From positions 213 through 64,212 of the forward strand of contig JAEHCK010000011.1 in assembly GCA_020696345.1 (NCBI GenBank): a stretch of 64,000 nt of DNA, read 5' to 3'. Under the pieces are notes generated by a model. The model was not told the origin of the DNA. It did not search any database and saw only the letters and a list, made by a program, of their open reading frames with translations. Positions 90 to 56,124 of the stretch are shown here, piece after piece (the stretch's first letter is position 1; each line of letters opens with the position of its first letter). Source of the DNA: Thermoplasmata archaeon. Lineage in GTDB: Archaea > Thermoplasmatota > Penumbrarchaeia > JAEHCK01. Both the position numbers and the translations under genes were made by a program.

Positions 90-206
90 ATGAAATTGAA
101 GATAATTGTTGGGTTGCAAATACTATTGTTATTATTAAATATTTTTATTATGAGTTAAAATTATTTCGTATAATAATTTGATTGATGGTGACGAGGAGTC
201 CAGTGG

Positions 207-308
207 ACTAATTATTGATTAATAGTTGAGAGTCCAGATAATTAATTATTGATTAATAGTCGAGAGTCCAGGCGATTAATTATTGATTAATAGTCGAGAG
301 TCAGGAGT
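207..308. repeat. Three tandem copies of a 34-bp unit (ATTAATTATTGATTAATAGTCGAGAGTCCAGnnn)
   Basis: Unit starts at 207, 241 and 275. Copies 2 and 3 are identical over 28 nt. Followed at 331-366 by GACTC words in the opposite orientation. Confidence 0.85.
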
Positions 309-389
309 CTGAATTATTGGTCAAAATTTACAACTCACGATTCTTGACTCACGACTCTTGACTTACAATAATGATTTAATAATGATGAG

Positions 390-2870: not shown

Positions 2871-4223
2871 TTATTGTTTGATCAATTTTGTCAGCCTTTG
2901 ATATGCATCGGTACGTGTAAATAATATCAATTCATCGTTCAACTTGATCCTGAAATCTCCTCTTGGGATCAGCACCTTGTCATTCCTGACAACTGCTGCA
3001 ACCAATGTGTTTTTGGGGAACTTGATCTTTTTCAAAGGTCTCTGACGCAATTTTGATTTCTCTGACACTTTATATTCCACTACCTGCGCCTCACCTTGGT
3101 TCAATATAGATACAGTTAAAAGGCCGGGGCGGTGGACATACTTCAGAATGGTACTGACCGTCACCTGCCGCGGACTGATCATTAGGTCAATACCCACATC
3201 CTCCAGCATGGATTTTATACTCAATCGATCCACAAGTGCAATTGTGCGCTTTGCGTTTTGCTGTTTGGCTAGTAGACAGGACAAAATATTGGTTTCCTCT
3301 TTATTTGTGGTTGCCAAGAACGCATCGACATTGGATATGCCCTCATCGAGCAACAGCTCTCTATCGGTACCACTCCCACGAACCACCAATACCTTTGGCA
3401 ATTTCTCGGATGCAAAAAGGCATTTTTCTTCGGATTCGTCTATTAAAATAACGTTCAAGCCCTGCTCTTGCAGTGTCTTTGCCAGGTGCATGCCTATCCG
3501 CGACGCACCGATGATCATGACCTTTCTAACAATAGTTTTCAGTTCCACATGTTCATAATGCCCGAACAACTCTTCTATGAGTTTAATAGATTCCAGGTCA
3601 CTCATTACCATGACCGCTCGATCATACGCTGCGAATATATCCGACCCGCGTGGAATTATTACATCGGCATCGCGAAAGATCGCCGCCACGTTACACTTTT
3701 GCGGCAGTCCACATTTTTTTAACTGCCTTCCTATGACTGGTGCACCCGGTTCGATGCGCGTGTCATACGCCTTGACCTTTCCATTTGCAAATATCGACAG
3801 GTCGATCAATGACGGGATCGATAAAATACGGGACATTTTTATCGCAGCCACCAGATCGGGGCAGATCGCGGTATCTATGCCCAGATTACGGAATTTTTCG
3901 ATCTCTATTGGTTCATCGATATATTCGATATCGTTTATCCGGGCTATGGTCTTGCATCCCTTCAATTTAGCGATCGCACACCCGAGCATGTTGATCTCGT
4001 CAGAACCGGTTACACCGATAAAGATGTCGGCGGAATTAATGTAGGCCTCTTCCAATTTTGCAGGTGATGCCGGGTTACCGTTAATGACCAGAACGTCCAA
4101 GCTCTCTGTACGCGAGCATGCGTTTTTGTCACTGTCGATTATTGCGACATTATGCCCGGCCTCCGATAAAGACCGTGCGATGGTGAATCCTACATCACCA
4201 GCACCGGCGATCACGATGTACAT
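2871..4223 (-). CDS. trkA: TrkA K+ uptake regulatory protein (two RCK units)
   Basis: Two Rossmann GxGxxG segments (VIAGAGDVGFTIA and MIIGASRIGMHLA), each followed by an RCK-C-like segment. 450 aa, in tandem with trkH. Confidence 0.9.
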   Translation of the reverse strand: MYIVIAGAGDVGFTIARSLSEAGHNVAIIDSDKNACSRTESLDVLVINGNPASPAKLEEAYINSADIFIGVTGSDEINMLGCAIAKLKGCKTIARINDIEYIDEPIEIEKFRNLGIDTAICPDLVAAIKMSRILSIPSLIDLSIFANGKVKAYDTRIEPGAPVIGRQLKKCGLPQKCNVAAIFRDADVIIPRGSDIFAAYDRAVMVMSDLESIKLIEELFGHYEHVELKTIVRKVMIIGASRIGMHLAKTLQEQGLNVILIDESEEKCLFASEKLPKVLVVRGSGTDRELLLDEGISNVDAFLATTNKEETNILSCLLAKQQNAKRTIALVDRLSIKSMLEDVGIDLMISPRQVTVSTILKYVHRPGLLTVSILNQGEAQVVEYKVSEKSKLRQRPLKKIKFPKNTLVAAVVRNDKVLIPRGDFRIKLNDELILFTRTDAYQRLTKLIKQ

Positions 4224-4378
4224 AGGATAGGCAAATGTGAGTGTGAGAAATTTAAATCTTTCGGTTACAACATTATTGCTGAGTTATGCAGGCATATATG
4301 GGTTTTTGTTGGGCCAGCAATAATAGGATAGAAGGGATATATTATTGCTTGAAAGTTTTATGAGTCTAGGGTCTTAAG

Positions 4379-4800
4379 AGTCTAGAGTCAAGAGTCTGGA
4401 GTATTGTGCCAGAGGCAGCATAAGAGATGAGGGTAGGTCCCCTCGGTGTCGGCTTGCAGGAGCACCACATAAAAATAAGTTTTTATTTTTAATGACTTCT
4501 TTTTTTTGTTTGAGCTTAGAATTCCGTTTATTAATTATTGATTTAAACTGGAATTCTAACCCTAGGCTTCAAATCACTCGGGATCGGGCTCCACTGCGTT
4601 AGGCTCTGTAGAAAAACCGCTTAGCAGGCTCTGCATATATTTCATTAGTTTAGGTTCGGGAGATATTAACCCGAACCTATTTCAGCTAAAATAAATCAGA
4701 ACCCGATCCTAATCCAGTAATAATAAATTAGATCCCACTCCCGAATTTGGATAAATCTAACCTTATAAGATGAATATTTATTGACTCTTGACTCTAGACT
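4379..4800. repeat. 18-bp perfect inverted repeat pair (AGTCTAGAGTCAAGAGTC at 4379-4396; its complement at 4783-4800) inside longer GAGTC-word arms (4362-4402 and 4783-4818)
   Basis: Direct reading of both strands. The arms bracket 386 bp of the trkA-nop5 divergent spacer. Confidence 0.8.
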
Positions 4801-4889
4801 CCCTGGACTCTTGACTCCAATTCAACATTCATTAAACGAAATTTATTTACACATCATCAACTATTAAGAATGCATAAATAGGTGTTTAT

Positions 4890-6035
4890 ATGGCCTTAAT
4901 ACTTACAACTACTTGGTTTGGCACATTCTTGATCGACCTCACATCGGGAAAAATAAAAAAGCAAAAGCTGTTTCCGAAAACCGTTCCTGAACTATGTGTT
5001 CGACTCAACACGCTCCAGAGCCAGGGGATCCTATCCGAGGAACAGGGTATGGTCAAAGGATTGAGAGAACCGATCATGGTCACTGATGAACGCATGAAAA
5101 TGTTGGGTGAACTGATCGAAATTGATGGAGTCGAGCAATTACCGGAGCAAATTATTCTGGCGTCTGAAGATTTTGGATTCTCGCCAGAGCTCTACCATCA
5201 GGCCATACTCGAACTTGGCAGATCTCGCACACGAAAGGCCGTGCCAAGGGATCATTATATTGTCCAGGCGGTGAATGGGTTGGATGACCTGACACAAACC
5301 GCGAACCTGTTATCAGAGCGCCTGCATGAATGGTACGGGCTGTACTGGCCCGAGCTCGATGATATTGTTAAAGAAACAGAATATGTCAACCTGATCTCGA
5401 AACTAGGTGACCGGGACACCATAATTGATAAAACCGAGAATAAAAAACTGAAAGGTTTTTCCGCACTCGAATCGGTTGGTGCGATCTTTGATCCCGAGGA
5501 TAAGGAGACCGTGATGGGTTTTGCCCAACAGCTTGTGAATGTACATGCCTCGGAGAAAAGCTTGGAAAACTATATCAAGAACTGCATGGAAGAGCTTGCG
5601 CCAAATATTACGATGCTGATCGGGCCGATCATAGGTGCACGCCTGATCGCGCTCACAGGCGGGTTATCACGCCTGTCTCAGGTATCCTCGAGCACAATTC
5701 AACTGCTCGGTGCGGAGAAGGCATTGTTCCGCCACCTGCGCACCGGTGAACGCCCGCCCAAGCATGGTATAATCTTCCAGCACCCGTTAATTCATAACGC
5801 GCCGTACTGGCACCGCGGTAAGATCGCGCGCGCATTTGCCGGTAAGCTCGCAATCGCGGCCAAGCTGGATTATCACTCCGGTAAATTCATGGGTGATAAG
5901 CTTGAAGAAGATGTCAAACGCAGGGTCGAGGAGATACGCAAAAAGTACCCACGACCGCCCGCAAGGAAGGGAGGCAAAGGTAAGGATAGGGGAAAGAGGA
6001 CTCGTAGAGGAAAGCGGAAGAAGTCGAAGAGATAA
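4890..6035 (+). CDS. nop5: Nop5 (Nop56/58) C/D box sRNP core protein
   Basis: Nop-domain motifs (AVNGLDDLTQTANLLSERLHEWYGLYWPEL; STIQLLGAEKALFRHL; PKHGIIFQHP) and a Lys/Arg-rich C-terminal tail. GGTG lies 7 nt before the ATG. Confidence 0.9.
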   Translation: MALILTTTWFGTFLIDLTSGKIKKQKLFPKTVPELCVRLNTLQSQGILSEEQGMVKGLREPIMVTDERMKMLGELIEIDGVEQLPEQIILASEDFGFSPELYHQAILELGRSRTRKAVPRDHYIVQAVNGLDDLTQTANLLSERLHEWYGLYWPELDDIVKETEYVNLISKLGDRDTIIDKTENKKLKGFSALESVGAIFDPEDKETVMGFAQQLVNVHASEKSLENYIKNCMEELAPNITMLIGPIIGARLIALTGGLSRLSQVSSSTIQLLGAEKALFRHLRTGERPPKHGIIFQHPLIHNAPYWHRGKIARAFAGKLAIAAKLDYHSGKFMGDKLEEDVKRRVEEIRKKYPRPPARKGGKGKDRGKRTRRGKRKKSKR

Positions 6036-10773: not shown

Positions 10774-13700
10774 ATGATGAGAACTAGAGTAATAAAGAGG
10801 TTGTTTTACGTATATTTGATATTCGCATTAATTACTGCTGGCTTAATCGGATTTCTAATGTTTGAAGGTGTGCGCGACACTCCCGGTGCACAAGCCGCAG
10901 CAATCATAGTCGATTCCAACGGCGGCGGCAATTACACCAAGATCCAGGATGCCATCGATGCCGCCAACCCAGGCGATACTATCTATGTCTGGGCCGGAAC
11001 GTATGTTGAGAATTTCATAATCAATAAAACATTAACCATGATCGGCAACGGAACTTCCAATACAACGCTCGTTGGTGCCATGGACGGTAACGTGGTTTTG
11101 ATCGAAGCAGATTGGGTGAACTTCTCGGGCTTTGAGATCAAGTCAAGTGGTAGCTGGAACTACGGCATCAGGCTTAATTTTGCTAATAACTGCAGTGTCG
11201 ATTCAGTTAAATTTACCAACCTATCTGTGAGTGTCAACCTGATACTCTCAGATAGAAACACCATCACCAATATCACAGGAAGTACTGGCTCGGTCAATCA
11301 TATATTGACATTTAATTCGAATTATAACTTGTTCAAGAATCATACATACTTCTCAACCGTATATTCACGGGTGAAGCTTGATAGTTCAGTGTTCAATACA
11401 CTCATGGATCTCGAGCTTGATAATACTCCTGGGACAGATATGCAAAATACTATTGAACTTGGTAAGTGTAGAAGCATGACACTTAAGAACAATAAAATTA
11501 CCCGGGGCGGAGTATTGATAACCAGCTTTAACTCGGTGGTTTCACATTGGAACACCCATGACATCGACCAGACCAACCTGGTAAACGGAAAGCCCGTCTA
11601 TTATCTGAAGGACCAGCAGAATACTGTGATACCTTCGGGCAAGGGTCAAATTATACTCGCTAATTGTAAAGATATAACTGTTGAAGACTATGACTTCAAT
11701 AATGTGAGCAGCGGTATAACACTCGGGTACTCACAAAATATTGTTATTTCGGATAACACATTCACCAATAACAACTACGGCGTCTATATTTTTGAGTCTG
11801 ATCTCAATACGATAAATAATAATAATTTTAATGTTAACGAATACAACATTCATCTCATCGGTTCGAACAATACTGTGATGGATAATTCTCTTTCCAAAAG
11901 CGATTGGAACAACATTTGGCTGAAAGGTTCTGATAATAGAGTGATAAATAATACGATTCAAGAGGGTTTTAACAGCATTCGTTTGGATTGGGACAGTAAC
12001 CGCAACCTGGTTTACGATAATACCTGCTTCCTAGCAAGTATGGAGGCTATTGGTATTTATGGTAAATACAATATTATTGCCAACAACTCATGCGACTTGA
12101 GCCCTACGGGGATCTTGCTGCGTGATATTGAAAACACTGTTATCAATAACACATGTTCCAATAACCATTACGGCATTAAATTGGGAACTCTATCAACATT
12201 GAAAAGACCAGGCAGCAATATTGTCAAGAACAATACATGTAAAAACAACGACGGCACCGGAATTGAGGTATACACCAGCGATAATCTGATCGAAAATAAT
12301 TATTGTTCAGAGAATGCATTTGGCATGAAATTTACTACTTCTGATAATAACATAGTCAGAGAGAACAATATTACCTATAACATAAATGGTTTCTCTTTAA
12401 CCTCTGATTGCATAAATAATACAATTTATCACAATAACATCATTTACAACGACCTGCAGGTCACAGACGATGGTGATACCGAATGGAGCTTTGATTCTGA
12501 AGGCAATTACTGGTCAGATTACAAGGGCTCTGATGACGGTTCAAACGGTCGTGTTGCAGGTGACGGTATTGGTGATACCGAGATTCCGCATATCCAACTG
12601 GATAACTTTCCGTTCGTGGAGGAGTCTGGCTGGGCATATCCAGGTGTGCTTGAATTCTTAGACCCGGGCGAAGTTGATCCCGATGGTGAATATACGTTAG
12701 CTTGGACCGCGAGTTATAGAGCCACGAAGTATTTGGTTGAGGAAGATGTTGTAATTACTTTTGATTCAGCAAATGTGGTCTATTATGGTTCAGATCTATC
12801 ATTTGATATTGTAAATAAAGACAACGGCACGTATTATTATCGCGTCATACCGTATAACGACCTGGGACCTGGTAGCTGGTCCAACTTTGTAGGAATTACC
12901 GTAGATTGGCTGCCAAATATACCGAAAAACCTATCTGTAGCAGTATTTCCAGCAGGAAATACGCTTAACATATCTTGGGACCCAAACAAAATTGATACCC
13001 AGAGATATAAGCTTGAATTTACCAATGAAACAATGACCATTAGGCAAACGCTTGAGATCTTTGACCACCCCGATAATACTTATAACCACACAGGATTAAA
13101 CGACGATGAGTTTCATTTATATTGGTTATCAGCCTGCGATGGCCGCGGCCAGTGGTCTGAGCGTACCGAATCTGTCTTTGCAATTCCGCATGATTCGGTT
13201 GCACCGGCACCGCCCACGGGACTAAAAGTGTTATTGACATCGAACGATACCGTAGTTCTAACCTGGAACTCAAGCCTCGAGGGCGACGTTGTGGGTTATA
13301 ATATTTACAGAAGTACCTTATCATCCGACCCTGCTACCTGGGGTAGGTTAATAGCGGTTGTTCCGGGGAACAAGAAACAGTATTTTGATTCCGATGCAGA
13401 CCTTCTGGAGGATTTCACATATTACTATACGATCAGGGCTTATGACGAGGTGCCCAACTATTCCAATTTTTCAAACATCGTAACTGCTAAAACCCTGCTT
13501 GGACCGCATGCGCCTGAGATAAATCACTCTTTACCAGATTTCGAATTGCTTGAAGATACCATAGATGTAACTTCCATCAATTTATCGTACTGGTTCAAAG
13601 ATATCAATGGTGACCCGCTAAAGTTCTCGTATGAAGGCCAGGAGCATATATTTATTGATATAGATGGAGAGGACGGCAGCGTGTTAATTGCACCGGAAGA

Positions 13701-14655
13701 GAACTGGAGCGGCCAAGAGACACTGACATTTACCGCCTCGGACGGTTTGTCCTCGGTATCTGATGATGTGACCATTACGGTACTACCAGTTAACGATCCA
13801 CCCGGAGATCTAAAGATCATGCAGCCGTTCGAGGGTGACGAGGTCTATGATGATGAGCCCATCAGTTTTCTAGCCGCTTGCGACGACCCGGATGAACCGT
13901 ACGGTGATCTGCTAACATTCAACTGGACCTCCAATATCTCCGGCCACCTGGGGTATGGCGACTATCTTGAAGGGCTCTATCTATCTCCCGGAGTACATTT
14001 AATAACGCTGACGGTCTGGGATACCGAAGGCCAGAGCATCAATACCAGTATTAATATTACAGTATTAGCGAGCCAGGCTATTGATCCACCTGATAAGCCG
14101 AACAAAGGCGACGAGGATAAAGATAGTTATATCGTATATTCTCAGATAGTAATTTCAGCAGTGGTCTCGATAATAATTATAATCATTCTCGGCGCATTTT
14201 TATTCATGTTCTACAGACGAAAAAAGGTGAAAGTTAAAGACGCACCCACCGAACCTCAACCCCAACCATTTTATACGGTTCAGGATAGGATGGGTGTCCA
14301 ACAACAACCACAACCGATGGTACGAGAGTCGGCACCAACACACATACCAATACAAACACAACCCCAGATAGTTCAATCCACCACTATGGCACAGCAGCCC
14401 ACGATACAACGATCACCATCCATTGCAACTGTACCCCAACCCAAGATCGCCTCGGTAGGAACACTACCAGAGAAACAGCGCATGCCCGCAGGTGAAAAAC
14501 GGCCAATACTACCACCTGGCAATGGTAATGAGGAAATGGTTAAAAGTCATGGAGTCGAGAGTCCTGGGAGTTCCGAGTCTAAAAACGTGAGTCAGGAGCT
14601 GGTGGTCAAGGAAACCACAAATCCCAATAATCAAATCATAAAAAATGGTTTGTGA
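10774..14655 (+). CDS. Giant surface protein: parallel beta-helix (NosD/PbH1-like) repeats, FN3-like, cadherin-like and PKD-like domains, TM, Pro/Gln-rich tail
   Basis: Signal anchor (LFYVYLIFALITAGLIGFLMF). GGGNYTKIQDAIDAANPGDTIYVWAGTY, then many N-rich beta-helix turns (NNTFTNNNYGVYIF, NNTCSNNHYGIKL). FN3-like (APAPPTGLKVLLTSNDTVVLTWN). VLPVNDPP. TM (IVISAVVSIIIIIILGAFLFMF). Confidence 0.8.
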   Translation: MMRTRVIKRLFYVYLIFALITAGLIGFLMFEGVRDTPGAQAAAIIVDSNGGGNYTKIQDAIDAANPGDTIYVWAGTYVENFIINKTLTMIGNGTSNTTLVGAMDGNVVLIEADWVNFSGFEIKSSGSWNYGIRLNFANNCSVDSVKFTNLSVSVNLILSDRNTITNITGSTGSVNHILTFNSNYNLFKNHTYFSTVYSRVKLDSSVFNTLMDLELDNTPGTDMQNTIELGKCRSMTLKNNKITRGGVLITSFNSVVSHWNTHDIDQTNLVNGKPVYYLKDQQNTVIPSGKGQIILANCKDITVEDYDFNNVSSGITLGYSQNIVISDNTFTNNNYGVYIFESDLNTINNNNFNVNEYNIHLIGSNNTVMDNSLSKSDWNNIWLKGSDNRVINNTIQEGFNSIRLDWDSNRNLVYDNTCFLASMEAIGIYGKYNIIANNSCDLSPTGILLRDIENTVINNTCSNNHYGIKLGTLSTLKRPGSNIVKNNTCKNNDGTGIEVYTSDNLIENNYCSENAFGMKFTTSDNNIVRENNITYNINGFSLTSDCINNTIYHNNIIYNDLQVTDDGDTEWSFDSEGNYWSDYKGSDDGSNGRVAGDGIGDTEIPHIQLDNFPFVEESGWAYPGVLEFLDPGEVDPDGEYTLAWTASYRATKYLVEEDVVITFDSANVVYYGSDLSFDIVNKDNGTYYYRVIPYNDLGPGSWSNFVGITVDWLPNIPKNLSVAVFPAGNTLNISWDPNKIDTQRYKLEFTNETMTIRQTLEIFDHPDNTYNHTGLNDDEFHLYWLSACDGRGQWSERTESVFAIPHDSVAPAPPTGLKVLLTSNDTVVLTWNSSLEGDVVGYNIYRSTLSSDPATWGRLIAVVPGNKKQYFDSDADLLEDFTYYYTIRAYDEVPNYSNFSNIVTAKTLLGPHAPEINHSLPDFELLEDTIDVTSINLSYWFKDINGDPLKFSYEGQEHIFIDIDGEDGSVLIAPEENWSGQETLTFTASDGLSSVSDDVTITVLPVNDPPGDLKIMQPFEGDEVYDDEPISFLAACDDPDEPYGDLLTFNWTSNISGHLGYGDYLEGLYLSPGVHLITLTVWDTEGQSINTSINITVLASQAIDPPDKPNKGDEDKDSYIVYSQIVISAVVSIIIIIILGAFLFMFYRRKKVKVKDAPTEPQPQPFYTVQDRMGVQQQPQPMVRESAPTHIPIQTQPQIVQSTTMAQQPTIQRSPSIATVPQPKIASVGTLPEKQRMPAGEKRPILPPGNGNEEMVKSHGVESPGSSESKNVSQELVVKETTNPNNQIIKNGL

Positions 14656-17736: not shown

Positions 17737-17960
17737 ACTATCAGCTCCTGCTCCTTTTCATTCCCCTCTTGATTAAAATTAAACATTCTTTCTTCCTATA
17801 GGAAGGGTGAATAAGGATAGTGATATTTAATTTATGGGATAATTAGTAATACTTCGTGGATTGATGGTTTAGTATTCAGAAATTAATGAATGGTGGAATA
17901 TTCAGGGGTAAGGGGTCACAATTCAGGGGTCAGAAATAAGCAGTTTTAAGTACATTCTTC

Positions 17961-18100
17961 AGTCTTCCAGTCTACCCGTCTTCTGGTCTGCTGGTCCGTT
18001 AGTCTACCGGTCGACCAGGTGACTACCTGACTAGCCGACTGGTTGACCAGCTGACTGATCGACTACCTGATTCATTATATTTTTCAACTAACAAAGTAGT
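17961..18100. repeat. Mosaic intergenic repeat (GACCAG/CTGGTC words plus a conserved 30-mer), reverse orientation copy
   Basis: The reverse complement aligns by eye over about 125 nt with 47256-47375 (shared blocks ACTACTTTGTTAG, CAGTCAGCTGGTC, GCTAGTCA, GACCGGTA). Confidence 0.75.
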
Positions 18101-19810: not shown

Positions 19811-22800
19811 TCACCGACCAGGGTCCGGTGGTTTGGAGTGTTTATGTTGGTAGTGCGGTTGCGCATGTGGCGCCTGCGAAATATGTCTCGGTGTTTGATG
19901 TAAATATTGCTGTTTATTTTCCTGCTGTGGGTGCTTTGGCATTTCTTCCATAGTTTCTCGTGCCGGTTGTGGTGTTGAAAACTCATATTCACTGGTGGCT
20001 GGCACACCATCTGGCGGTGGTAAATCATACAACCGATCCTTTTTACCATTTTTACGAAAATAGAAAAAGTAAAGCATACACAGTATGATGATCAATATTA
20101 TCACACCAACAGCAGCACCGATCATTACTGCGTTCGAATCCGATTCCTGTATCGACCCATCCTTATCTTTTAAAACACGGATCGTTAGTGTTGTGTTACG
20201 TTTTACCTCCAGGCCATACTCTTTTGCCTTGGTGGAGTTTACTGATACATTTATTTGTATCTCTCCGGGTTTTGTATTGGAACCAACTTTTATTACCACC
20301 GAAAACTCTGCAAAACCATCAACATCTACCGGTTTGGAAGCATTACCCGATATCCTGATATCTATTCCGGTTTTTGAAGTTGTTTCCAGAGTCAATAATA
20401 CAATATCGTTCGCCTCACCCAAATTCTCAACCGTTGCTTTTACGATCTTCTCCTCGCCCTGATGCAGCTCGACCACACTTTCATTAAGAACAATAGCCAG
20501 GTCGAATTTTGGCACAATATCTGCAACTACCTTGAATGACCATGTTGCTGAATCGGGCCCCTCGATATCCCCGGCAAACGGCACAATCTTCCAGTAATAT
20601 GTCTTACCGTTCTCAAGATCTTTCTCTACTGAATACTTATTTCCCGAGATACTTTCTATGATACTCTCCTCGCCATCATCTGACCAGATATGTATATTAT
20701 AAGTTACGGCCTCCGTACCGGCATAGGTAACCGACCATTTCAGGATGGGTTTCGATGTGTTAACATCTACACCGTCCAATGGCGATTGAAGTGTAACCTG
20801 TGGCACGGGGATGCTGAGGTTCACGGAAAACGACCAGACACCGGACAGGCACCGGCCGTTTGTTGAACCGGTCTTTGGTACCACGGTCCAATAGTATGTA
20901 GTGCCATCGGTTAAGCCTGTTTTAAGTAATGTTGTTTCAGAGTGATCCGTTTTCTCTGATTTTTTCGGCGGGTTAACTGTATCAAGCAAGATATCATACC
21001 TAATTCCCGTAAAACCCATGTCGGTTAATTCCCATTTCAATTCGATGGATTTCTTTGCGATGACGGCACCGCTCTTGGGCGCCAGCAACTTGACCTTTGG
21101 CGTCTGTGCATCCAGCCAGGTGTTTACCTTTATATTATATATCTTAGATTCCGTGGGTCCATTACCCGCAATATCTACCGCGCGCCATTTGATATGGTTC
21201 TCTGTGCCGTTGGCAAATGTGATATTTAATTTCACATCAATGCCGGCGCTTTCCACCAGATCATGAACCTTTAACCACGGCTCCCATGTACCACCCCCAT
21301 CGGTGGATATTGCATATTCCACCGAGGCCGCATCCACGCCGGAGGTCTCATCTGAAATGGTAATTCCCACCTCGACGGTTTCTGTGGGTGATTCTGATGC
21401 CTGGGATGGTAGATTGTCAGAAAAAATGACATATTGAGTGTCTATCAATATCCTGTACGGTTCACTTTCTATAGGGCCGTTACCCACAGTATCTCCCGCC
21501 TGCCATTTGACCAGGTTTTCACGGCCATCCTTTAACGTAACCTGACCATTGGCGGATACACTTGCTTCATCGTCCTTGTTAGTGGCGCCGGGTTGCCAGA
21601 CATTCCAGATTGAGCCATTATCGGTTGTGGTGCTGTACTCTATACTCGATGCATCCACGAAGCCGCCGCCAGTGTCCAGAACAGCTATACCAACTGCCAC
21701 GTCGGTATCGGTGTGCCATGTAGTATTATCGGGCGTAGGATTCGAATATGTCACATTCTCGCTGTCGAGCTTGATGGTGAACGATTCCGATGTTGCATCG
21801 CAGTATGGAGGAATACCGGTGAGATTTATTGTATAAGTAAACCCATCCGAATCTGAAATATATGGTGTGGTGATCTCGATATCAATCGGCTGGCCGGGGA
21901 CCGGTGATGAGAACCATGATCTACCGTTGTCACCCCAGATGGTCACCTTTAGTCCACTATCTGTGGGATAAATATCTGTTGTACTTTGGTAAGCCGGTAT
22001 CAAACCCGAAAATGTTAATTTTTCACCACCGCGGATAATAGAGCTTCCTGTTATCAGCAGATCTTCTTCATACCTTACTTCCAAATTTCCTGTAAACACC
22101 AGGTCGTTTTCCACACGGTACATATTTGACATGTTAAGCCATGCTGGTGGTAACATCTCGCTAGATGCATAAACTTTCACATCATGAAGGTTTTCATCCG
22201 GGTATGTCCAGTTGAAGGTAACATTGAAATCGATTGTCCAGTTATTTCTGCCGTTGTTGTATGCTATGCACGATTGTTCAAGAGTAAGATAATTATTAGG
22301 ATCGTTTAGCTTTTTGAATTGCCCAGTTGCTCGATCCCATCGGAGTTGGATGCTCAATCCCTGTGGGTCCAAATTCAATTGGGTAAATTCAAGATCTATT
22401 AAAGATATTGAATCAGTTATATTAACTCTAAATGTGTATAGACCAAGCATAGAATAGATCTTATTCATAACCACATCATTTTTTATTAATTCAAGAGAAC
22501 CAATCCGTATTCCAACGGGGAACGAAAATTTTGAAACAAATACATCAGTTCTGTTATTATGAGTAATATTGAAAGCGCCTTTAGAAGTAGGAAAATCCGT
22601 TGAAGATGTGTGGCCAGTAATAAAAACATTTCCTTTAGAGTCAATATCGATCCCCGATCCAGTATCGGTATCTAATCCACCCAAACATGTGGAATATAAT
22701 AATGTTGAACAATTTGAATTTAATTGAGCTAAGAACACATCATCATCTTGTATATGTTTTGCATATGCATCCGGTGTGACGGGGAAATCATATGATCCGG

Positions 22801-24736
22801 TGGTACCTGTTACAAATATCTTCCCGTAAGTATCCAGTTTCAAATCGATCCCTGAATCGTCTGAAGTGCCATCTAAGAATGTCGAGCAAACGATCTTTGA
22901 CCCGGATTCATTTAATTTTAAAACAAACACACTAACATCTCCTGAGTTTTTTTGTGTGCAATATGCCCTGGGTGTAGTAGGAAAATCATCAGAATCTGTA
23001 TAGCCTGTTACAACCGCATTACCTTCAAGATCCAATTTTAAACCATAGCCACCGTCATCATTTACACCACCTATAAACGTAGAATAGTTGAGTTTTGAAC
23101 CGTTATGATTGAGTTTTGTAATAAAACAGTCCAATGTACCAAAATTTCCATTAAAGGAAGTATCTTTTGCACCGGGTGTTGTTGGGAAATCAGAAGATGA
23201 TGTAAGACCGGTTATGAATGCTTCACCCTTGGAATTGGTTTCGATATTAATTATATAATCAGCTTGGTTTCCGCGTATATATGTTGAATAATTTAGCTTT
23301 GATCCATTATTATTTAATTTTAAAACAAAACCATCTTGATTAACACTAGAAGAATTATCGAACGCATTTTTGGTGGTGGGGAAATCTAAAGATTGAGTAT
23401 TACCGGTTACATAAGCATCTCCATATGGATCAATAGCAATATCATAGGCATAATCGGAGCCACTACCACCAATATAGGTAGAATAAATGAGTTTTGAGCC
23501 ATTTGGATATAATTTCACACACACAATATCTCTGTTCCCGTTATTGGATGAATTCAATGCATCCTTTGTTACTGGGAAATCAGTTGAATCCGTTCTACCA
23601 GTAACAAATGCTTCTCCGAGTGTATTGACCTCGATCGCATTTCCCCTGTCGTCCAAACTTCCTCCAATGAAGGTTGAAAATATCAGTTGTGAGCCGTTAT
23701 GATTTAATTTTGATACAAAAATATCATTGGTGCCATTCAATATAATGTCTAACGCACCCGTAGTATTCGGGAAATCATGTGATTGGGTGTAACCCGTTAT
23801 GAATGCATTCTCCGAATCATCTACCGCAATGTCAAAACTATATTCATAACCATCCCCACCAACATAAGTCGAATACTCCAACGTTGGATCGATGATCAAT
23901 GTTCTTTGCGGATCAAACTCTCCGATCAGATCAAAACCATATTTATTTTCATTTAATACACAAAATCTACTATCAACCTGCCGCCTTTGACCATTGCTCT
24001 CCTGGTAAACGAATAGGTCTCTATCCACGATATTTTTAATGCCTGTCCGTATCTCCAGGTCACCGAATTCATTAACCTCTATTCCATCCGCACCATCGAC
24101 CTTAACTCTAATTTGGCTTGGATCGGCACCTGGGTGCACGATAAAATCGTATTTCAAGCCGTTGTTATCTGTATAATATCGCAGATCGATGCCGTCATAA
24201 ATGTGCTCGTAATACACCTCACCGTAATTGGGCACACCAGTACACCACCTGGTCGAGTCATTGCCGTAGAAGAAATTGCTGTTCCAGGATAGTCTTTGTC
24301 TGCCTTCGGGGCGGACCAGGTTTGCACCAACGAATTCCTGCTTGATCACAGCTCGACGATATTGAATTGGTTTAAGTTGCTCTTGATAAATCATCGGATC
24401 AGATCTGACTCTCGACTCCAGACTCCTAGACTCTCGACCTTCAATTGGTATCTCTTCTCTGAGCTCAAGCCACATACCATCATCAGTAAACCATACACCG
24501 CCGTCCTTGGAATAGAAGCGGACAGCATTGTTCTCGAGCTGGCCGCGGTTGGGGGTGAAGGTGATCGGTCTTTGCAGTGACGCATCAAATTTATACTGAA
24601 ACCGGTTCTCATTAGATTCACTATTTATTGATCCCTGATCATTTTGAAATACGCTGACCTCGCCGATGATCCCCATAGGATATAAGTTAAGGATAAAAAT
24701 GGATACAATAATAAGACCTATTATTTTCTTAGTCAA
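19811..24736 (-). CDS. Giant surface protein: SBBP-type beta-propeller repeats, Ig/FN3-like and CARDB-like domains, TM, Pro/Gln/His-rich tail
   Basis: Signal anchor (IIGLIIVSIFILNLYP). About nine repeats of the pattern YSTYIGGSGSDYAYDIAIDPYGDAYVTGNTQSLDFPTT. Three repeats of the TYYWTVVP/TYYWKIVP type. TM (AVMIGAAVGVIILIIILCMLYFFYF). Confidence 0.85.
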   Translation of the reverse strand: MTKKIIGLIIVSIFILNLYPMGIIGEVSVFQNDQGSINSESNENRFQYKFDASLQRPITFTPNRGQLENNAVRFYSKDGGVWFTDDGMWLELREEIPIEGRESRSLESRVRSDPMIYQEQLKPIQYRRAVIKQEFVGANLVRPEGRQRLSWNSNFFYGNDSTRWCTGVPNYGEVYYEHIYDGIDLRYYTDNNGLKYDFIVHPGADPSQIRVKVDGADGIEVNEFGDLEIRTGIKNIVDRDLFVYQESNGQRRQVDSRFCVLNENKYGFDLIGEFDPQRTLIIDPTLEYSTYVGGDGYEYSFDIAVDDSENAFITGYTQSHDFPNTTGALDIILNGTNDIFVSKLNHNGSQLIFSTFIGGSLDDRGNAIEVNTLGEAFVTGRTDSTDFPVTKDALNSSNNGNRDIVCVKLYPNGSKLIYSTYIGGSGSDYAYDIAIDPYGDAYVTGNTQSLDFPTTKNAFDNSSSVNQDGFVLKLNNNGSKLNYSTYIRGNQADYIINIETNSKGEAFITGLTSSSDFPTTPGAKDTSFNGNFGTLDCFITKLNHNGSKLNYSTFIGGVNDDGGYGLKLDLEGNAVVTGYTDSDDFPTTPRAYCTQKNSGDVSVFVLKLNESGSKIVCSTFLDGTSDDSGIDLKLDTYGKIFVTGTTGSYDFPVTPDAYAKHIQDDDVFLAQLNSNCSTLLYSTCLGGLDTDTGSGIDIDSKGNVFITGHTSSTDFPTSKGAFNITHNNRTDVFVSKFSFPVGIRIGSLELIKNDVVMNKIYSMLGLYTFRVNITDSISLIDLEFTQLNLDPQGLSIQLRWDRATGQFKKLNDPNNYLTLEQSCIAYNNGRNNWTIDFNVTFNWTYPDENLHDVKVYASSEMLPPAWLNMSNMYRVENDLVFTGNLEVRYEEDLLITGSSIIRGGEKLTFSGLIPAYQSTTDIYPTDSGLKVTIWGDNGRSWFSSPVPGQPIDIEITTPYISDSDGFTYTINLTGIPPYCDATSESFTIKLDSENVTYSNPTPDNTTWHTDTDVAVGIAVLDTGGGFVDASSIEYSTTTDNGSIWNVWQPGATNKDDEASVSANGQVTLKDGRENLVKWQAGDTVGNGPIESEPYRILIDTQYVIFSDNLPSQASESPTETVEVGITISDETSGVDAASVEYAISTDGGGTWEPWLKVHDLVESAGIDVKLNITFANGTENHIKWRAVDIAGNGPTESKIYNIKVNTWLDAQTPKVKLLAPKSGAVIAKKSIELKWELTDMGFTGIRYDILLDTVNPPKKSEKTDHSETTLLKTGLTDGTTYYWTVVPKTGSTNGRCLSGVWSFSVNLSIPVPQVTLQSPLDGVDVNTSKPILKWSVTYAGTEAVTYNIHIWSDDGEESIIESISGNKYSVEKDLENGKTYYWKIVPFAGDIEGPDSATWSFKVVADIVPKFDLAIVLNESVVELHQGEEKIVKATVENLGEANDIVLLTLETTSKTGIDIRISGNASKPVDVDGFAEFSVVIKVGSNTKPGEIQINVSVNSTKAKEYGLEVKRNTTLTIRVLKDKDGSIQESDSNAVMIGAAVGVIILIIILCMLYFFYFRKNGKKDRLYDLPPPDGVPATSEYEFSTPQPARETMEEMPKHPQQENKQQYLHQTPRHISQAPHAQPHYQHKHSKPPDPGR

Positions 24737-27661: not shown

Positions 27662-28396
27662 ATGATAATTATGAATGACTTGACAATTACAAAAATGCTG
27701 GAAGATAGACAAGCTGCAGTATTTACAACGCAACAATTGGCCGTATTGTTCGGGTTGAAACCCAACTCCACTACAGTGAAATTAAACCGTCTTGTAGCAA
27801 GAGGTGTTTTGGTTCGCGTGGTTAGGGGCCGATATACTCTGCCTAGCACAAATATACTTGCCGTTGCTTCCAGCATATATCCGCCATCGTATGTGTCATT
27901 ATTAGCAGCATTTGAATATCATGGCACTACCACTCAATCACCCAGGATGATCGATGTTATAAACAATGTACACACGGGTCGTACAACAATATTGTTGGAG
28001 TCCGGGCTGTTTGAAATACGTTTTATTAAAGTAGCTCCTTATTTGCTCTTTGGCTATGAAAAGAATTTTATTAATAGCATGACCTCTATGATCGCTGAGA
28101 AAGAAAAAACGATAGTCGATAGTTTATTACTCATTGGTTATGTATCATTGGACGAAACAGTGGCGTGCATTCGCAGCCAGGTTAATTATGAAAAAGCAAT
28201 GGAGTATGCCCGACGCACCGGCCGACAGAGCGTGATAAAGAGATTGGGATATCTACTCTCATCTGAAGGAATAGATGTTTTGCCAAAATTTCTAAAGGGT
28301 CTATCGAAAACCTATGTGCCGCTGGACCCCGCACTCTCCAAGCGAGGGAAATATGACCCGAAGTGGCGAATTATTGTTAATAGGGTGATCGAATGA
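27662..28396 (+). CDS. abiEi: AbiEi-family type IV toxin-antitoxin antitoxin (wHTH regulator)
   Basis: N-terminal wHTH (FTTQQLAVLFGLKPNSTTVKLNRLVARGVLVRVVRGRYTL) and an AbiEi-like C-terminal domain. ATGA overlap with the downstream AbiEii gene. Confidence 0.78.
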   Translation: MIIMNDLTITKMLEDRQAAVFTTQQLAVLFGLKPNSTTVKLNRLVARGVLVRVVRGRYTLPSTNILAVASSIYPPSYVSLLAAFEYHGTTTQSPRMIDVINNVHTGRTTILLESGLFEIRFIKVAPYLLFGYEKNFINSMTSMIAEKEKTIVDSLLLIGYVSLDETVACIRSQVNYEKAMEYARRTGRQSVIKRLGYLLSSEGIDVLPKFLKGLSKTYVPLDPALSKRGKYDPKWRIIVNRVIE

Positions 28397-29157
28397 ATCG
28401 TGATGAACTGAAAAGACACATCGGAATAACCGGTTACTCGTTGGGACAAGTGGAAAAAGATTATTTTCAGCATATGATTCTTGGTGCATTATCAAGAAGA
28501 GCTGGTGGAGGGTTGGTGTTCAAGGGAGGCACAGCATTACAAAAACTTGGTATTATACCCCGGTTCAGTGAAGACTTGGACTTCACTGCACGATATGATC
28601 CAAAGATACAAAAGTTAAAAGATTATATTTTAAGGGTTATCCATAATTATAATTTCTTGGCCGAGGCAAACAATTTTATTGACGATGAGAGAACAGCTGG
28701 TTTTCGAATTAAGATACAGGGTCCACTCTTTCGCAACAGACAAGGATTATGTACTATCAGAATAGAGATTAGCAAAAGAGAGTCAGTGATATCAATCCCT
28801 GAAAATAAAGAATTCAATCCACCATATCTTGATATACTGCCATATTCTTTGAATATCATGCATAAGGAAGAAATTCTTGCTGAAAAGATTCGTGCAATTT
28901 ATTCTAGGCATAAGGCACGAGACCTTTATGATATTTACAAACTCTTAGAGATAGGAACAATTTACAATATCGATCTAGCTAATGAAAAATTGGATTATTA
29001 CAATCTTCAATTCGATACTGGATCATTCATAGAAAATTGTGAGAAATTAAAACCAGATTGGGAGCGGGACCTACAAAGCTTAATGCAAAATATCGTACCA
29101 TATAATAATGTCTTGAATGTTATTAAGGAAAGACTTTTGAAAGATCAGAAACTATAA
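28393..29157 (+). CDS. abiEii: AbiEii/AbiGii-family nucleotidyltransferase toxin (DUF1814-like)
   Basis: Motifs EKDYFQHMILGAL, LVFKGGTALQKL and RFSEDLDF are typical of this family. 254 aa. Confidence 0.82.
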   Translation: MNRDELKRHIGITGYSLGQVEKDYFQHMILGALSRRAGGGLVFKGGTALQKLGIIPRFSEDLDFTARYDPKIQKLKDYILRVIHNYNFLAEANNFIDDERTAGFRIKIQGPLFRNRQGLCTIRIEISKRESVISIPENKEFNPPYLDILPYSLNIMHKEEILAEKIRAIYSRHKARDLYDIYKLLEIGTIYNIDLANEKLDYYNLQFDTGSFIENCEKLKPDWERDLQSLMQNIVPYNNVLNVIKERLLKDQKL

Positions 29158-38093: not shown

Positions 38094-38326
38094 GGTCGAC
38101 TGTTAGACCGAGTGACAGGGGTCTGGGGCCGGAAACAGTTGCTAGATGTTAGTTGCTAGTTGCCAGTTTAATAATATCACACTAGAAACTAGAAGCTAGC
38201 AACTGATAACTAACGGGGTCGGGGTGAGAACAAGGTACGAGTTTAACGGGAAGAATCAATAAATAAGCACACTGGCAACCGACAACTGATTACTGACAAC
38301 TAGTATGGACGGTAGACCATCTAACA
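38094..38326. repeat. MITE-like mosaic element (GTTGCTAG/CTAGCAAC words), long copy
   Basis: Shares GGTCGAC..GGAAACAGTTGCTAGATGYTAGTTGC..CAGTTTAATA..ATCACACTAGAAACTAGAA and CTGACAACTAGTATGGMCGGTRGAC with 61371-61484. Carries about 110 extra internal nt. Outer 10-bp pair CAGTTGCTAG/CTAGCAACTG. Confidence 0.7.
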
Positions 38327-47222: not shown

Positions 47223-47375
47223 ACAGTTGCTAGGTTCTAGTTGCTAGTTGCTAGTACTACTTTGTTAGCTGAAGAATTTAATGAATAATAGACGGTCGAC
47301 CAGTCAGCTGGTCGATCTGTCAGCTAGTCACCCAGTTGACCGGTATACTGTTAGACCAGTAAACGAGCAGACCGG
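47223..47375. repeat. Mosaic intergenic repeat: GTTGCTAG words, conserved 30-mer, GACCAG/CTGGTC words
   Basis: 47223-47285 parallels 42724-42780. 47256-47375 parallels the reverse complement of 17961-18100. Confidence 0.8.
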
Positions 47376-49103: not shown

Positions 49104-49144
49104 CTAACGATCATTTTTTTATTAATTAATTTGAGGTGACTGAC

Positions 49145-52100
49145 ATGCGGCGTACAGTTTCTGTTATTGTTGTGATCTTTTTATTATTGGGTGGATTTAT
49201 ATTACCGATATCTTTCGACTTGACTTCGCAAGATGCATCGGCAGAGGATTGGTATATGTCCATAGATGTGGATACCACCTGGAACACGGATATGGCCATC
49301 AAACAGGATATTTATATTAGCGCTGGCAAAACATTAACGATAGACCCGGGCGTTACAATTCTATTCGACGGAGCATTCAGTTTAATTGTAAATAGCACGG
49401 GCAAGTTGGTAGCGAACGGTGGCCAAACACAACCGATAACCTTTGACCGAACAGGAGGCAGTAAATGGGCAGGACTGGAAGTTCTTAATAATGCCAGGTC
49501 CGAGCTTGACTGGTGCACGTTTAATAATGCAAATAATGGGATCATTTTACAAAATAATCAATTTTATACCAACATCACGAACAGCTCATTCTCTAATTGT
49601 ATACAATATTTAAATATTAAAACTTCAAAGGTCAATATAACCAGCACGAAGTTTGAAGGTAAAGCATTTGATAAAAACCCAAACCAGATCCTGGGCAAGA
49701 TCGACATGGACAGCACCTCTGAAATATATATCCAGTATTTTGTTAACATATATACGGTGAACGGTTCGTCAGATCTGACCATGCGGGCGCGGATGACGTA
49801 CCCGGTTTCGAATGTGAACGTGGACCTAGATAATTTTGTTCAGGACCGGCTATTCGGTACCACGGGTTCTAATGGTACCGTTTCGAACATGCGTGCAACT
49901 TCATTGAAGATCAATGGCTCGGCAAAAACCCGTGATTATCAATTTAGTATTTATAAAATGGAAGTGTCCGATAAGTGGGACAGCACAATGCGTGAGGCCT
50001 TTGGAATTTCTCGTAATTCTACGAATTTTAATTTATCTTCAATAGTGAATCAATCATTTTCGGGTGATGATCTTGAAGTCGATTCAAATCTTCATATTAA
50101 TGCATTCTTCATGTTCAAATATCCACCTGTGATCACCTCAGCTTCAAATAGGGTGACCGTTTACGAGGATGCTCCAAAAACAGACAGTTTCATATTCTTT
50201 GATAATGATGACGATTCCGATCTCGAAAGTAATATCACTATTAATATTACCGACCAGCACGGGAAAACAATATATAGTGATGAGCCGAATACAACAGACA
50301 CATGGATCAGCTGGTATAATGAAACAGAAGAGTTAATTTTCTACAGGACCATCGAATCACCCGACACACCGGCTGGCCCGGGGGATTACAAGGCCAAAGT
50401 AGATGAGACCATTTACGTAACAATAACAGACCTATTGGGCCAGAAGGCAGAACACAGCATAATAATCGAGTATCATAATGTTCCGGACAAGCCGATGATC
50501 ACCGGGATACCGGTAACCATACCAGTGGTCGAGGATCAGGTGAAATATATCCCGATCTCGGTCTCCGATAACGATAACGGTACTGCCGACATATATATCT
50601 CAAGCAATAGTGAATATGTGAAATATGTCTACAATGATACCAATGACCAGAGTTTATATTTCAAGTTCCCGAACGAGTTTGGTGCGGACGGGTCACAACA
50701 GTTGGTGAACATCTCGGCAACCGATAACTGCTCGGATGAGGTTACATATAATTTTAATGTGCTGTTCAGCCAAACTCCCGACCGGCCGAAGATCATTGGC
50801 ACGATCCCGAACAAGATCGGTACGGAAACCGACTGGACCCCGGAGCTTGTATTGAATGATTATTGGTTCGACCCCGACCCAGATGATAACGCGAACACTT
50901 TGGATTGGTATGTGTCGGGTGTGAATGCCAAATACTTTGAGGTCTTCGGTGCGAACCAAACGGCCGTTTCACCGTTAAGCTTCAATTACATCTATGATAT
51001 TGATCTGGGTGGTGCCCGAAGCCAGGGTCAGATCGTGGATGATGTCACGATCTGGCTTGAGGATAAGGACGGGTTGAAAGTACATCAAAATATTAAATTG
51101 ATAGTGACCGGAACAAACCAGCAACCAAGCCTGCACAAGGTCAAGATCAATAATACCCAATTTTCGGTACAGCCGGAAGCCGGTGATAATGACCAAACAT
51201 ACAAGTTCATGATCGAATACAAGGACCGCGACGGTTTAAAAGGTGATGCACCCGAGCATGTCAGGGTAATTATCGATAGCGAGCAGCATGATATGCTCGA
51301 ACAAAACCCTGATGACGAAGATCATATCGATGGCAAGTTATATTATTACGAAACCAAGCTGAGTATCGGCACGCACCAGCATTATTTCGTATGCTCCGAC
51401 AGCGCTCTCTCTTCTCGTCAGCCCAAACTGGACGACGATCCGAACATAATATCGTTGCCAGTAGTGAGCTCAAAGATCAATATCGGTAAATTCAAAAGTA
51501 ATGACGGCAATTTCATAGCGAAAATAGCGTATACCGGTAATAAAGGCAGTGCATCGATCACGATTACGGCTACGGATGTTGTTTCTGTGCCTGCGGCCGC
51601 ATACGAGGAGCGCAAGGGCGATATCGGTGTATATTTCGTGATCAAAACCCAAAATATGAGCTCGATCATCTGGGTGGATATTTCGGTCAAGTTTGGTTCC
51701 GGGTTTGACAATTATGGTTCTCGTTGGTTGAAGAAGGACGATATGGATTTGGCTTATCTGGAGAATACCACCTGGCAGCCGTTGATACAGGAATCGAACA
51801 TGTTTCTTGAAGATGATATGAATATGCTGGGATGTAATTTCACGCGCACGAACATTTTAAGCGCTTTACTCATCGATAACAACACGGCCATGTTCACGGT
51901 GATCGGCTGGCTGGATGCGGATAGCGATGGGTATTTCAATGACGAGGATGATTTTCCGTTCGACACCGCAGCCAGTGAAGATAGGGACACCGACGGCTCA
52001 CCCGATAAATGGAACCCTGGAAAAAACCAAAAAGACTCCACAACAGAACCGAAGTTACACCTGGACAAGTTCCCAGACGACCCCGCAGCCAGCCTGGATG

Positions 52101-55746: not shown

Positions 55747-56124
55747 TTGATGAATTGATGCTTAACAGAAGCCAGGTTGGGTTGATGTTGAACAGAAACC
55801 AGGCTTAATTAATACTGAACAGAAGCCAAGCTGAGTTGATGTTGAATAGAAACCAGGTTGAGTTGACGCTGAACAGAAGCCTGGTTGAGTTGATGTTGAA
55901 CAGAAACCGGCTTCTGTCAATCAACAATGAATCAAGGTTTCTGTCAATCAACAATGAATCAAGGTTTCTGTCAATCAACAATTAATCCCGGCTTCTGTCA
56001 ATCAACAATTAATCCCGGCTTCTATCAATCAACAATGAATCTCGGCTTCTATCAATCAACAATGAATCATGGCTACTGTCAATCAATAACTCATCACGGC
56101 TACTGCCAATCAACAAATCTACAT
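55747..56124. repeat. Two abutting tandem arrays of exactly 27-bp units: 6 A-type units (55747-55908), then 8 B-type units (55909-56124)
   Basis: No indels across 14 units. A units end ACAGAAGCC or ACAGAAACC in strict alternation. B units start with the exact reverse complements GGCTTCTGT or GGTTTCTGT. Confidence 0.9.

Follow-up and report, generated by a model that had tools for sequence, protein, structure and literature searches.

Host gene and position of the array

The 64,000-nt stretch analysed here, hereafter the window (positions 213 to 64,212 of contig JAEHCK010000011.1, assembly GCA_020696345.1, from a Thermoplasmata archaeon), carries a gene for a 1641-aa surface protein (19811–24736, minus strand) whose N-terminal region contains a short array of heptamers and octamers with a GTC core. 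According to the list of open reading frames (ORFs) and the domain matches, the protein comprises an N-terminal hydrophobic signal or anchor, a DUF7948 domain, SBBP beta-propeller repeats (PF06739, E = 3e-26), an Ig/fn3-like region, a C-terminal transmembrane helix and a low-complexity tail. The DUF7948 match (PF25778, E = 1e-58) extends over residues 60 to 285 (23882–24559, minus strand), with 226 residues placed on a 214-position profile, and spans the array site. The array is situated in a hypervariable loop of this domain (residues 94 to 127; 24356–24457, minus strand), between the predicted strands 87–95 and 126–135 and 5' of a conserved (F/S)DP(M/L) motif.

The array itself occupies positions 24407–24439 and is read on the minus strand. 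It appears on the plus strand as four GACTC words, at 24407, 24414, 24421 and 24429, followed by a degenerate GACC at 24436–24439, and on the coding strand as five units, GGTC-GA-GAGTC-TAG-GAGTC-TG-GAGTC-GA-GAGTC, spaced at 7, 7, 8 and 7 nt. The 5-nt core is exact in four of these units, the spacers vary (GA, TAG, TG, GA), and one unit measures 8 nt; Tandem Repeats Finder reports a period-7 array at 24414–24433. An earlier reading of the DNA made from its sequence alone (the sequence-only reading) had described a GAGTC-word module placed in frame inside this ORF and read on the minus strand, and the frame is indeed unbroken across it. The 39-mer quoted there, AGATCTGACTCTCGACTCCAGACTCCTAGACTCTCGACC, is present, at 24401–24439 rather than at 24411–24449, that is, 10 nt to the left. 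The minus-strand reading across the array is ...IEGRESRSLESRVRSDPM..., and the array together with its edges encodes the peptide E99–D113, EGRESRSLESRVRSD (24398–24442, minus strand), the array words falling in codon phases 0, 2, 0 and 1.

An AlphaFold2 model of residues 1–300, built from a 32-sequence alignment, reached a mean predicted local distance difference test score (pLDDT) of 83.5. Residues 101–120 scored 58–63, and the flanking beta-strands 87–95 and 126–135 scored 88–98. The array peptide is accordingly placed in a low-confidence, predicted disordered loop of DUF7948 with confident strands on either side. A fold search with the DUF7948 model against the PDB yielded no match at E ≤ 0.001, only weak matches to the N-terminal beta-sandwich of GH92.

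Besides the coding array, the 64-kb window, the only part of the source genome covered, has GAGTC clusters at 196–357, 4362–4396, 4783–4817 and 14552–14593. The word GAGTC occurs 56 times in the window, compared with 68 ± 8 in dinucleotide shuffles and 46 under a maximal-order Markov model (z = 1.75); its overall number is not enriched, and the signal therefore resides in clustering and not in word count. When arrays of any 5-mer were counted (at least three copies at 6–9-nt spacing), 20 were found in the window, against 0–5 (mean about 2) in 20 block shuffles. Since such arrays are about ten times commoner than in the shuffles, the array is real and not a product of chance. Almost all of them are intergenic, the array described here being the sole G+C-containing one inside a coding sequence (CDS).

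Conservation of the array among homologues

Homologues were compared at 113 loci for loop length and frame, and codon phases were counted in 17 clade sequences. The nearest relatives of the host protein belong to uncultured Thermoplasmata from marine and estuarine sediment, and in a collection of 185,579 species genomes, which does not contain the source genome, the nearest entries are metagenome-assembled genomes of uncultured Thermoplasmata with 43–51% identity. The array segment is the most variable part of DUF7948 in the protein alignment, with loops of 0 to 47 aa among the 113 homologues. Close homologues carry kindred low-complexity peptides at the array position, such as NSRESRVGSQESD, NSRESSVESQEPDE, RGQGSEASGQEPQ and RGQGSQLRGQGG; bacterial and more distant archaeal DUF7948 homologues do not have the array peptide.

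Most homologues of the marine-sediment Thermoplasmata clade contain a GTC-core heptamer array that begins at the same codon and in the same phase. The loop array reads TAGTC-GA-GAGTC-AA-GAGTC-GA-GAGTC-AA-GAATC in L002, L004 and L097 and AAGTC-GA-GAGTC, the latter word four times, in L083. GAGTC arrays are also found in L088, L091, L081 and L005, GGGGTCA arrays in L086, L090 and L092, NAGTC units in L003, and CACTC-type 8–9-mers in L102 and L113. A period of 7, which is not that of coding DNA, characterises 13 of the 16 strongly periodic loops. Other clade members (L006, L085, L087, L093–L096) possess an array-less loop of 29 aa with the form EEI...FDPLSRFEPPEPxKYK, and L099 and L100 have nearly no loop.

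In 11 of the 17 clade sequences (the window copy, L002, L004, L081–L083, L086, L089, L090, L092 and L097), with GAGTC-type and GGGTC-type arrays alike, the first G[AG]GTC word lies at a distance of 24 nt from the loop start and is in phase 0. Their common pattern at this word, RGT-CRR-GRG-TCN, encodes S/G/C, R/Q, E/G and S; the differences between the two types are purine transitions, which are non-conservative at the amino acid level. Counted over the 17 homologues, G[AG]GTC words are in codon phase 0 in 19 cases, in phase 1 in 8 and in phase 2 in 15. The same DNA word yields differing peptides (ESRSLESRV, ESRVGSRES, ESRVESQ, ESRVQSR, ESSVGSQ), the change arising where a unit measures 8 nt instead of 7. 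The purine-rich strand is the sense strand of the array in all homologues.

Within the arrays, all 6 Val codons are GTC (genome usage 16%) and all 12 Glu codons are GAG (genome usage 47%), while CGA accounts for 2 of the 11 Arg codons (genome usage 12%), both at the shared first Arg of L083 and L088, the rest being mostly AGA or AGG. The last of these counts is partly circular, as the arrays are defined by the word, but this circularity does not touch the conservation of position, phase and orientation. Thus, the array is a DNA-level repeat translated in three phases and not a peptide motif.

Four-fold synonymous identity between array-bearing genes in the flanking, well-aligned domain is 0.15–0.52, that is, saturated. 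The shared codon and phase, together with the saturated synonymous sites, show that the array is not a recent, genome-specific insertion. It is old, common to the gene family and kept at the nucleotide level more tightly than neutral drift predicts. The sequence-only reading is in this respect partly supported: bacterial and distant archaeal homologues have no such peptide, but many Thermoplasmata homologues start their array at the same codon and phase. The same peptide was not encountered in genomes devoid of the repeat family, since homologues with a similar peptide encode it by GTC-core heptamer arrays of their own, although the intergenic family is hardly checkable in these genomes given their short contigs (one GAGTC array was seen outside the loop, at 244–263 of L096).

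Length variation in the loop follows the repeat unit. Many array-bearing loops measure 36 aa and so exceed the array-less ones, with 29 aa, by 21 nt (three heptamers); the window loop, with 34 aa, exceeds them by 15 nt. The sequencing runs (X1, X2 and X4 among them), all of them DNA runs, were searched as assembled Logan contigs, in which rare tract-length variants are invisible. The region is present at 100% identity in run X1, a metagenome of marine sediment. A contig of run X2 with about 97% identity to the window has an in-frame deletion of 15 nt (one 8-mer and one 7-mer) at 24421, a single observation. No frame change at the loop was found in the 113 homologous loci, all matches lying in one frame. 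In a simple neighbour-joining tree, array-bearing and array-less genes are interspersed, which implies losses, repeated gains, or both.

In L088 (metagenome contig Ga0114922_10134824), the NxGQLEN motif at the start of DUF7948 has an in-frame stop, at about position 1200, in place of its conserved Q. This nonsense codon, possibly the mark of a pseudogene or a sequencing error, is far from the array and unrelated to it.

Intergenic modules and related repeats

The GACTC/GAGTC words of the coding array were said to be those of the intergenic modules, and this comparison is confirmed: the array matches the intergenic GAGTC modules of the window over 12–20 nt, and the words cited are found where expected, CGAGAGTC and GGAGTC within 260–309 and TAGAGTC within 4362–4402. 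The first module (196–363, plus strand) lies between the tRNA-Arg and tRNA-Gly genes and consists of three copies of a 34-bp unit (GAGTCCAG..GATTAATTATTGATTAATAGTCGA), followed by GAGTC units and then by an inverted GACTC array. A GAGTC heptamer array is located at 4354–4402 (plus strand), about 140 nt upstream of the minus-strand gene 2871–4223, and another, which precedes the plus-strand gene 4890–6035 by about 75 nt, at 4781–4817 (minus strand, TTGACTC on the plus strand). A looser in-frame GAGTC cluster is present at 14552–14593 (plus strand; starts at 14552, 14559, 14575 and 14589), in the low-complexity C-terminal tail of ORF 10774–14655. The product of this ORF is a 1293-aa NosD/beta-helix/fn3/PKD surface protein whose tail reads ...MVKSHGVESPGSSESKNVSQE...; the 12-mer GAGTCGAGAGTC is common to it and the array of the SBBP gene.

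The coding-strand segment GTCGAGAGTCTAGGAGTCTG aligns with the intergenic positions 292–311 at 19 of 19 bases, with one single-base gap. In local alignments against the intergenic modules, array-bearing loops scored above all 200 shuffles nearly always (5 of 200 for the worst pairs), the shuffles keeping base composition only, whereas array-less loops did not score above them. The coding sequence AATTATCGATTAATAGTCAAAAGTCA of L084 matches the window at 23 of 26 positions (277–302), including the AT-rich part ATTGATTAATAGTC. Contig depth over 241–312 is in excess in X1, X2 and X4, and other X1 contigs match the intergenic module, so that the module must be dispersed in those samples. Taken together, these similarities indicate that the coding array belongs to the dispersed repeat vocabulary of the intergenic modules of the genome.

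A typical intergenic module of the window pairs an array with an inverted array behind it, and such modules form periodic hairpins, with fold z-scores of -2.6 for 38125–38215 and -3.8 for 17950–18075. By comparison, the coding array (24380–24480, minus strand) forms no hairpin or RNA structure (z = +1.1) and represents one arm only. No inverted partner and no flanking direct repeats or target-site duplication of note were found at it. Signals for an internal sigma-70-type promoter or an intrinsic terminator near the array were below chance, in a scan that is unsuited to archaea. The loops of L081 and L084 do hold an inverted array in addition to the first one (GACTG after AGTC), and they form periodic hairpins with z-scores of -1.9 and -1.2.

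Repeats also occur in the DUF7948 loops of bacteria, whose homology to the archaeal loop was checked by alignment. Loops of the Pyrinomonadaceae type (L019, L055, L011, L069) carry (AATGCGG)n ... (CAATCCG)n (z = -5.3 in L055), those of Nitrospira (L074, L041) carry (GAAGCGT)n, degenerate in L041, that of Gemmataceae (L053) carries (AATTCAG)n (z = -3.9), and that of Terriglobia (L077) a 9-mer palindrome (z = -5.6). In Zixibacteria (L114, P0028; 3200–3420), the 204-nt loop contains an in-frame palindrome, GTCATTCCCGCGCAGGCGGGAATCCAG..., encoding VIPAQAGIQ...RFRGHD (z = -4.2), which is a classic bacterial palindromic repeat. Some of the bacterial arrays occur as inverted pairs and fold into hairpins.

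In the archaeal clade, period-7/8 arrays reach 39 per 10 kb in the loop, compared with 0.40 in the rest of the fetched loci; the bacterial values are 11.8 and 0.49 per 10 kb. Strong arrays were detected in 11–14 of 25 loops (cut-offs 0.8 and 0.7). None of the control segments of the same length, among them the equally disordered N-terminal linker (0 of 25), had an array at the 0.8 cut-off, and at 0.7 an array was present in 2 of 25 archaeal linkers. A cross-phylum repeat hot spot at the DUF7948 loop is only suggested by these numbers, because the counts ignore relatedness (L011, L019, L055 and L069 are one lineage).

Other repeats and genes of the window were recorded as well. A second dispersed module family, with (AGTTGCT)n, an AT-rich loop and inverted (ACTAGAA/CTAGCAACT)n, is present in the intergenic regions 38137–38204, 47225–47255 and 61388–61465 and forms an imperfect hairpin (z = -2.6 for 38125–38215). 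A long imperfect palindrome at 17956–18070, between the pyruvate:ferredoxin oxidoreductase operon and the adenylate kinase gene, is built around the centre GGTCGACC, with units of about 8 nt that have (A/G)GTC cores on one side and the complement GAC(T/C) after it; it gives the strongest fold signal measured in the window (z = -3.8). The 34-bp repeat at 196–302 contains TTAATTATTGATT beside GAGTC, and the same 13-mer recurs once, at 4531–4543, between the two inverted GAGTC arrays. A related sequence, TTCATTGTTGATT, recurs in a 27-bp array at 55908–56116, the total amounting to 23 matches with at most 2 mismatches against 8.3 expected. Three tandem arrays have a 27-bp period (55751–55905, 5.7 copies; 55908–56116, 7.7 copies; 61832–61952, 4.5 copies); the first two adjoin in one intergenic gap, and their consensus units are partly reverse-complementary by eye. 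The only known RNA families in the window are two tRNAs.

The gene neighbours are ordinary chromosomal genes, including the pyruvate:ferredoxin oxidoreductase operon, adenylate kinase and succinyl-CoA synthetase, besides several other giant surface proteins. The gene of an AbiEii-family nucleotidyltransferase toxin (type IV toxin-antitoxin; Pfam E = 5e-29) at 28393–29157 (plus strand) adjoins that of succinyl-CoA synthetase beta. A 1301-aa protein (49136–53041, plus strand) has C-terminal helix-turn-helix modules (HVO_0163-type, ArsR/MarR-like) as its only recognisable domains; it is an unusually large putative DNA-binding protein encoded in a region rich in repeat arrays.

In the IMG/VR viral collection, (GAGTCNN)x4 or longer was found in 116 stretches (viral contigs L115–L194), with up to 32 units and TT as the commonest spacer. 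Stop-free frames of 150 aa or more enclose 61 of the 84 arrays that were examined, so that viral ORFs with internal heptamer arrays are no rarity. No viral contig matched the module together with its AT-rich leader, TTGATTAATAGTCGAGAGTC.

Two further ideas about the GAGTC words were dropped. Restriction-modification or word avoidance (GAGTC is a PleI/MlyI-type site) is at odds with the lack of depletion, 56 occurrences being counted against 46 expected (z = 1.75). An origin of GAGTC tandem repeats through a nicking enzyme plus polymerase was set aside, as most array words of the window are without GAGTC.

Origin of the array and comparison with known systems

With slightly better than even confidence, we favour the explanation that the array is an old, slippage-driven GTC-core repeat array that is tolerated in the permissive DUF7948 loop as a length-variable passenger. 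The ancestral gene of the Thermoplasmata family would have received a member of the GTC-core heptamer family in this loop, on one or a few occasions. Afterwards, the array may have grown, shrunk, changed its word and sometimes decayed through replication slippage or unit turnover, while selection would have sieved the variants only for reading frame (15 = 7 + 8, 21 = 3 x 7) and for the absence of stop codons. The polar, disordered peptide would be tolerated by the protein, not needed. The provisional explanation for the retained GTC/purine pattern is concerted evolution, or homogenisation among members of the repeat family.

Several points weigh against this explanation. Pure slippage with neutral drift leaves unexplained the persistence of the GTC core and the purine spacers at saturated synonymous divergence, and slippage does not account for the recurrence of the same word at five places of the window. 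The units are imperfect and few (4–5), so that slippage should be slow, and the single length polymorphism was observed in assembled contigs only. Tolerance alone does not explain the location, because the equally disordered N-terminal linker is without strong arrays. Finally, the crude neighbour-joining tree cannot tell one gain followed by losses from several gains.

The alternative closest to the sequence-only reading is that a mobile module resembling a Rickettsia palindromic element (RPE) or a miniature inverted-repeat transposable element (MITE) was transposed or copied in frame from intergenic DNA into the gene, with independent insertions across homologues; we regard this as unlikely. 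It would be consistent with the hairpin structure of the intergenic modules (z = -2.6 and -3.8), with their dispersal as judged from the excess depth over 241–312 in X1, X2 and X4, with the two-armed modules in the loops of L081 and L084 (z = -1.9 and -1.2) and with the strong hairpins or palindrome in bacterial loops (L055, -5.3; L077, -5.6; L053, -3.9; L114/P0028, -4.2), and also with an intergenic similarity that reaches into the AT-rich part (23/26 nt) and with the interspersed tree. The window copy, however, is one-armed (z = +1.1), with neither an inverted partner nor flanking direct repeats, and the 5' edge and codon phase are identical across genomes, which argues for inheritance rather than repeated insertion. 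Moreover, no transposase gene and no gene like that of a REP-associated tyrosine transposase (RAYT; REP, repetitive extragenic palindrome) was detected among the 16 of 43 long window ORFs that were scanned. A similarly low probability is assigned to the proposal that the DUF7948 loop is a dedicated cassette site, in which a period-7 nucleic-acid element would be maintained, at nucleotide level, in the coding sequence of a family of archaeal surface proteins (in Thermoplasmata a GTC-core array akin to the intergenic hairpin modules), the bacterial lineages (Pyrinomonadaceae, Nitrospira, Gemmataceae, Terriglobia, Zixibacteria) having gained their own arrays or palindromes independently, and whose use would be programmed loop diversification or DNA/mRNA control.

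A functional nucleic-acid element is likewise an unlikely reading in our judgement. The array would then serve as a binding array for a GTC/GAGTC factor, or as a purine-rich, Shine-Dalgarno-like mRNA element about 100 codons into the mRNA of a secretory protein, and the intergenic copies would have the same partner. It draws on the retention of RGTCRRGRGTC while the amino acids vary (S/G/C, R/Q, E/G) and synonymous sites are saturated, on the array orientation conserved in all homologues, on the occurrence of the word at five window loci, with the two promoter-proximal arrays alike in orientation relative to their genes, and on the period-7 enrichment in the loop (39 versus 0.40 and 11.8 versus 0.49 per 10 kb, with no arrays in the control segments at the 0.8 cut-off and in 2 of 25 archaeal linkers at 0.7). 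Nevertheless, no partner is known, the word varies (GAGTC, GGGTCA, CAGTC, CACTC) and some clade members are array-less; the promoter-proximal arrays have the opposite orientation to the one in the CDS, the coding array forms no RNA structure, and promoter or terminator signals do not exceed chance. We consider it improbable that the loop is a contingency or hypervariable locus, where slippage varies the surface protein by on/off frame switching or in-frame epitope change. In its favour are a unit length not divisible by three, a tract position in the 5' part of the gene for an exposed, membrane-anchored protein, an in-frame length polymorphism between near-identical strains, extreme loop diversity among paralogues, and the presence of period-7 arrays in this loop across several phyla. 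All the same, in assembled sequences, which hide minor variants, none of the 113 loci is a frame-shifted allele, the sole stop (L088) is a point nonsense codon remote from the array, and 4–5 imperfect units are short for efficient switching. The last candidate, an ordinary Ser/Arg/Glu low-complexity linker selected as a peptide and resembling intergenic DNA by coincidence, appeals to a loop that is polar and of low complexity in nearly all homologues. It is nonetheless very improbable, and a peptide-level or chance origin is effectively excluded by a periodicity of 7 nt and not of 3, 6 or 9 (13/16 periodic loops), by the presence of the same word in three phases, by a codon choice fixed against genome usage, and by intergenic matches of 12–26 nt above shuffles.

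In-frame translated repeat DNA is known mainly from RPEs and from scattered bacterial cases of MITEs and heptamer repeats. The present case shows the same outcome in an uncultured marine-sediment archaeon, and offers an unusually clear comparative series: in one domain loop, across dozens of paralogues and orthologues, arrays would arise, expand, change word, pair into hairpins and decay under a frame constraint. Two features go beyond the ordinary, the GTC/purine retention at saturated synonymous divergence and the recurrence of period-7 arrays and palindromes in bacterial DUF7948 loops. If function rather than tolerance underlies them, the loop would be a testable case in which a nucleic-acid element resides in a coding sequence, or in which the surface proteins of environmental prokaryotes have a hypervariable site built in. 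Otherwise, the lesson is one for annotation, in that such peptides are repeat-derived and not motifs, and heptamer arrays may be legitimate parts of ORFs.

RPEs are palindromic elements of about 150 bp found in frame in protein-coding genes (Ogata et al. 2000, as reviewed in PMC10969869). The parallel with them, drawn from the sequence, stands for the outcome, repeat DNA translated in frame in a tolerant loop, and not for family membership or a transposition mechanism, the window array being 33–39 nt long, unfolded and without a duplication. As in RPEs, the repeat DNA is also intergenic, is translated in frame at a fold-compatible surface or loop site, and is absent from homologues outside the lineage. 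Nonetheless, RPEs are discrete, encode a conserved peptide and are scattered in unrelated genes, while here a one-armed, unfolded tandem array of 33–39 nt occupies the same codon throughout one gene family across genomes, and its peptide is not conserved. The RPE parallel fits better for the loops with full hairpin modules (L081, L084, L055, L077 and L114).

REPs, bacterial interspersed mosaic elements (BIMEs) and the short tandemly repeated repetitive (STRR) heptamers of cyanobacteria are short, lineage-specific, mostly intergenic and often hairpin-forming. No REP-like consensus was found here and no RAYT gene among the scanned ORFs, and the window copy, unlike REP/BIME palindromes, is intragenic and non-palindromic. 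The simple-sequence contingency loci of host-adapted bacteria such as Haemophilus and Neisseria (PMC2651432) are likewise genes for surface proteins with a non-triplet repeat tract in their 5' coding part, and the tract differs in length between strains; in the present case, however, the tract is short and imperfect, none of the 113 loci is frame-shifted, and the sole variant is in frame. Searches of the literature on archaeal heptamer repeats and on SBBP surface proteins returned nothing specific.

Among the long simple-sequence repeats of prokaryotes, the heptanucleotide class is the most frequent and has been ascribed to slippage of the polymerase (Mrazek, Guo & Shah 2007, as summarised in PMC4679880), and heptamer repeats inside ORFs survive mainly at the protein periphery or in unconstrained parts, in the stop-free orientation (PMC4679880). 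The TAACTGA repeats of Beggiatoaceae and cyanobacteria (MacGregor 2015, PMC4679880) are an example. The likeness lies in 7-nt tandem units in 2–6 copies, mostly intergenic and genome- or lineage-specific, with occasional copies in ORFs and with slippage as the proposed mechanism. The present repeats differ in having an archaeal host and a 3–5-nt core with variable purine spacers instead of identical units; furthermore, their intergenic copies are paired into hairpins, and the intragenic copy lies in an internal loop of a folded domain, at a clade-conserved position and phase. Failing the size, the palindromy and the discrete dispersed copies of RPEs and MITEs, the array is best filed as a variant of the heptanucleotide simple-sequence repeats.

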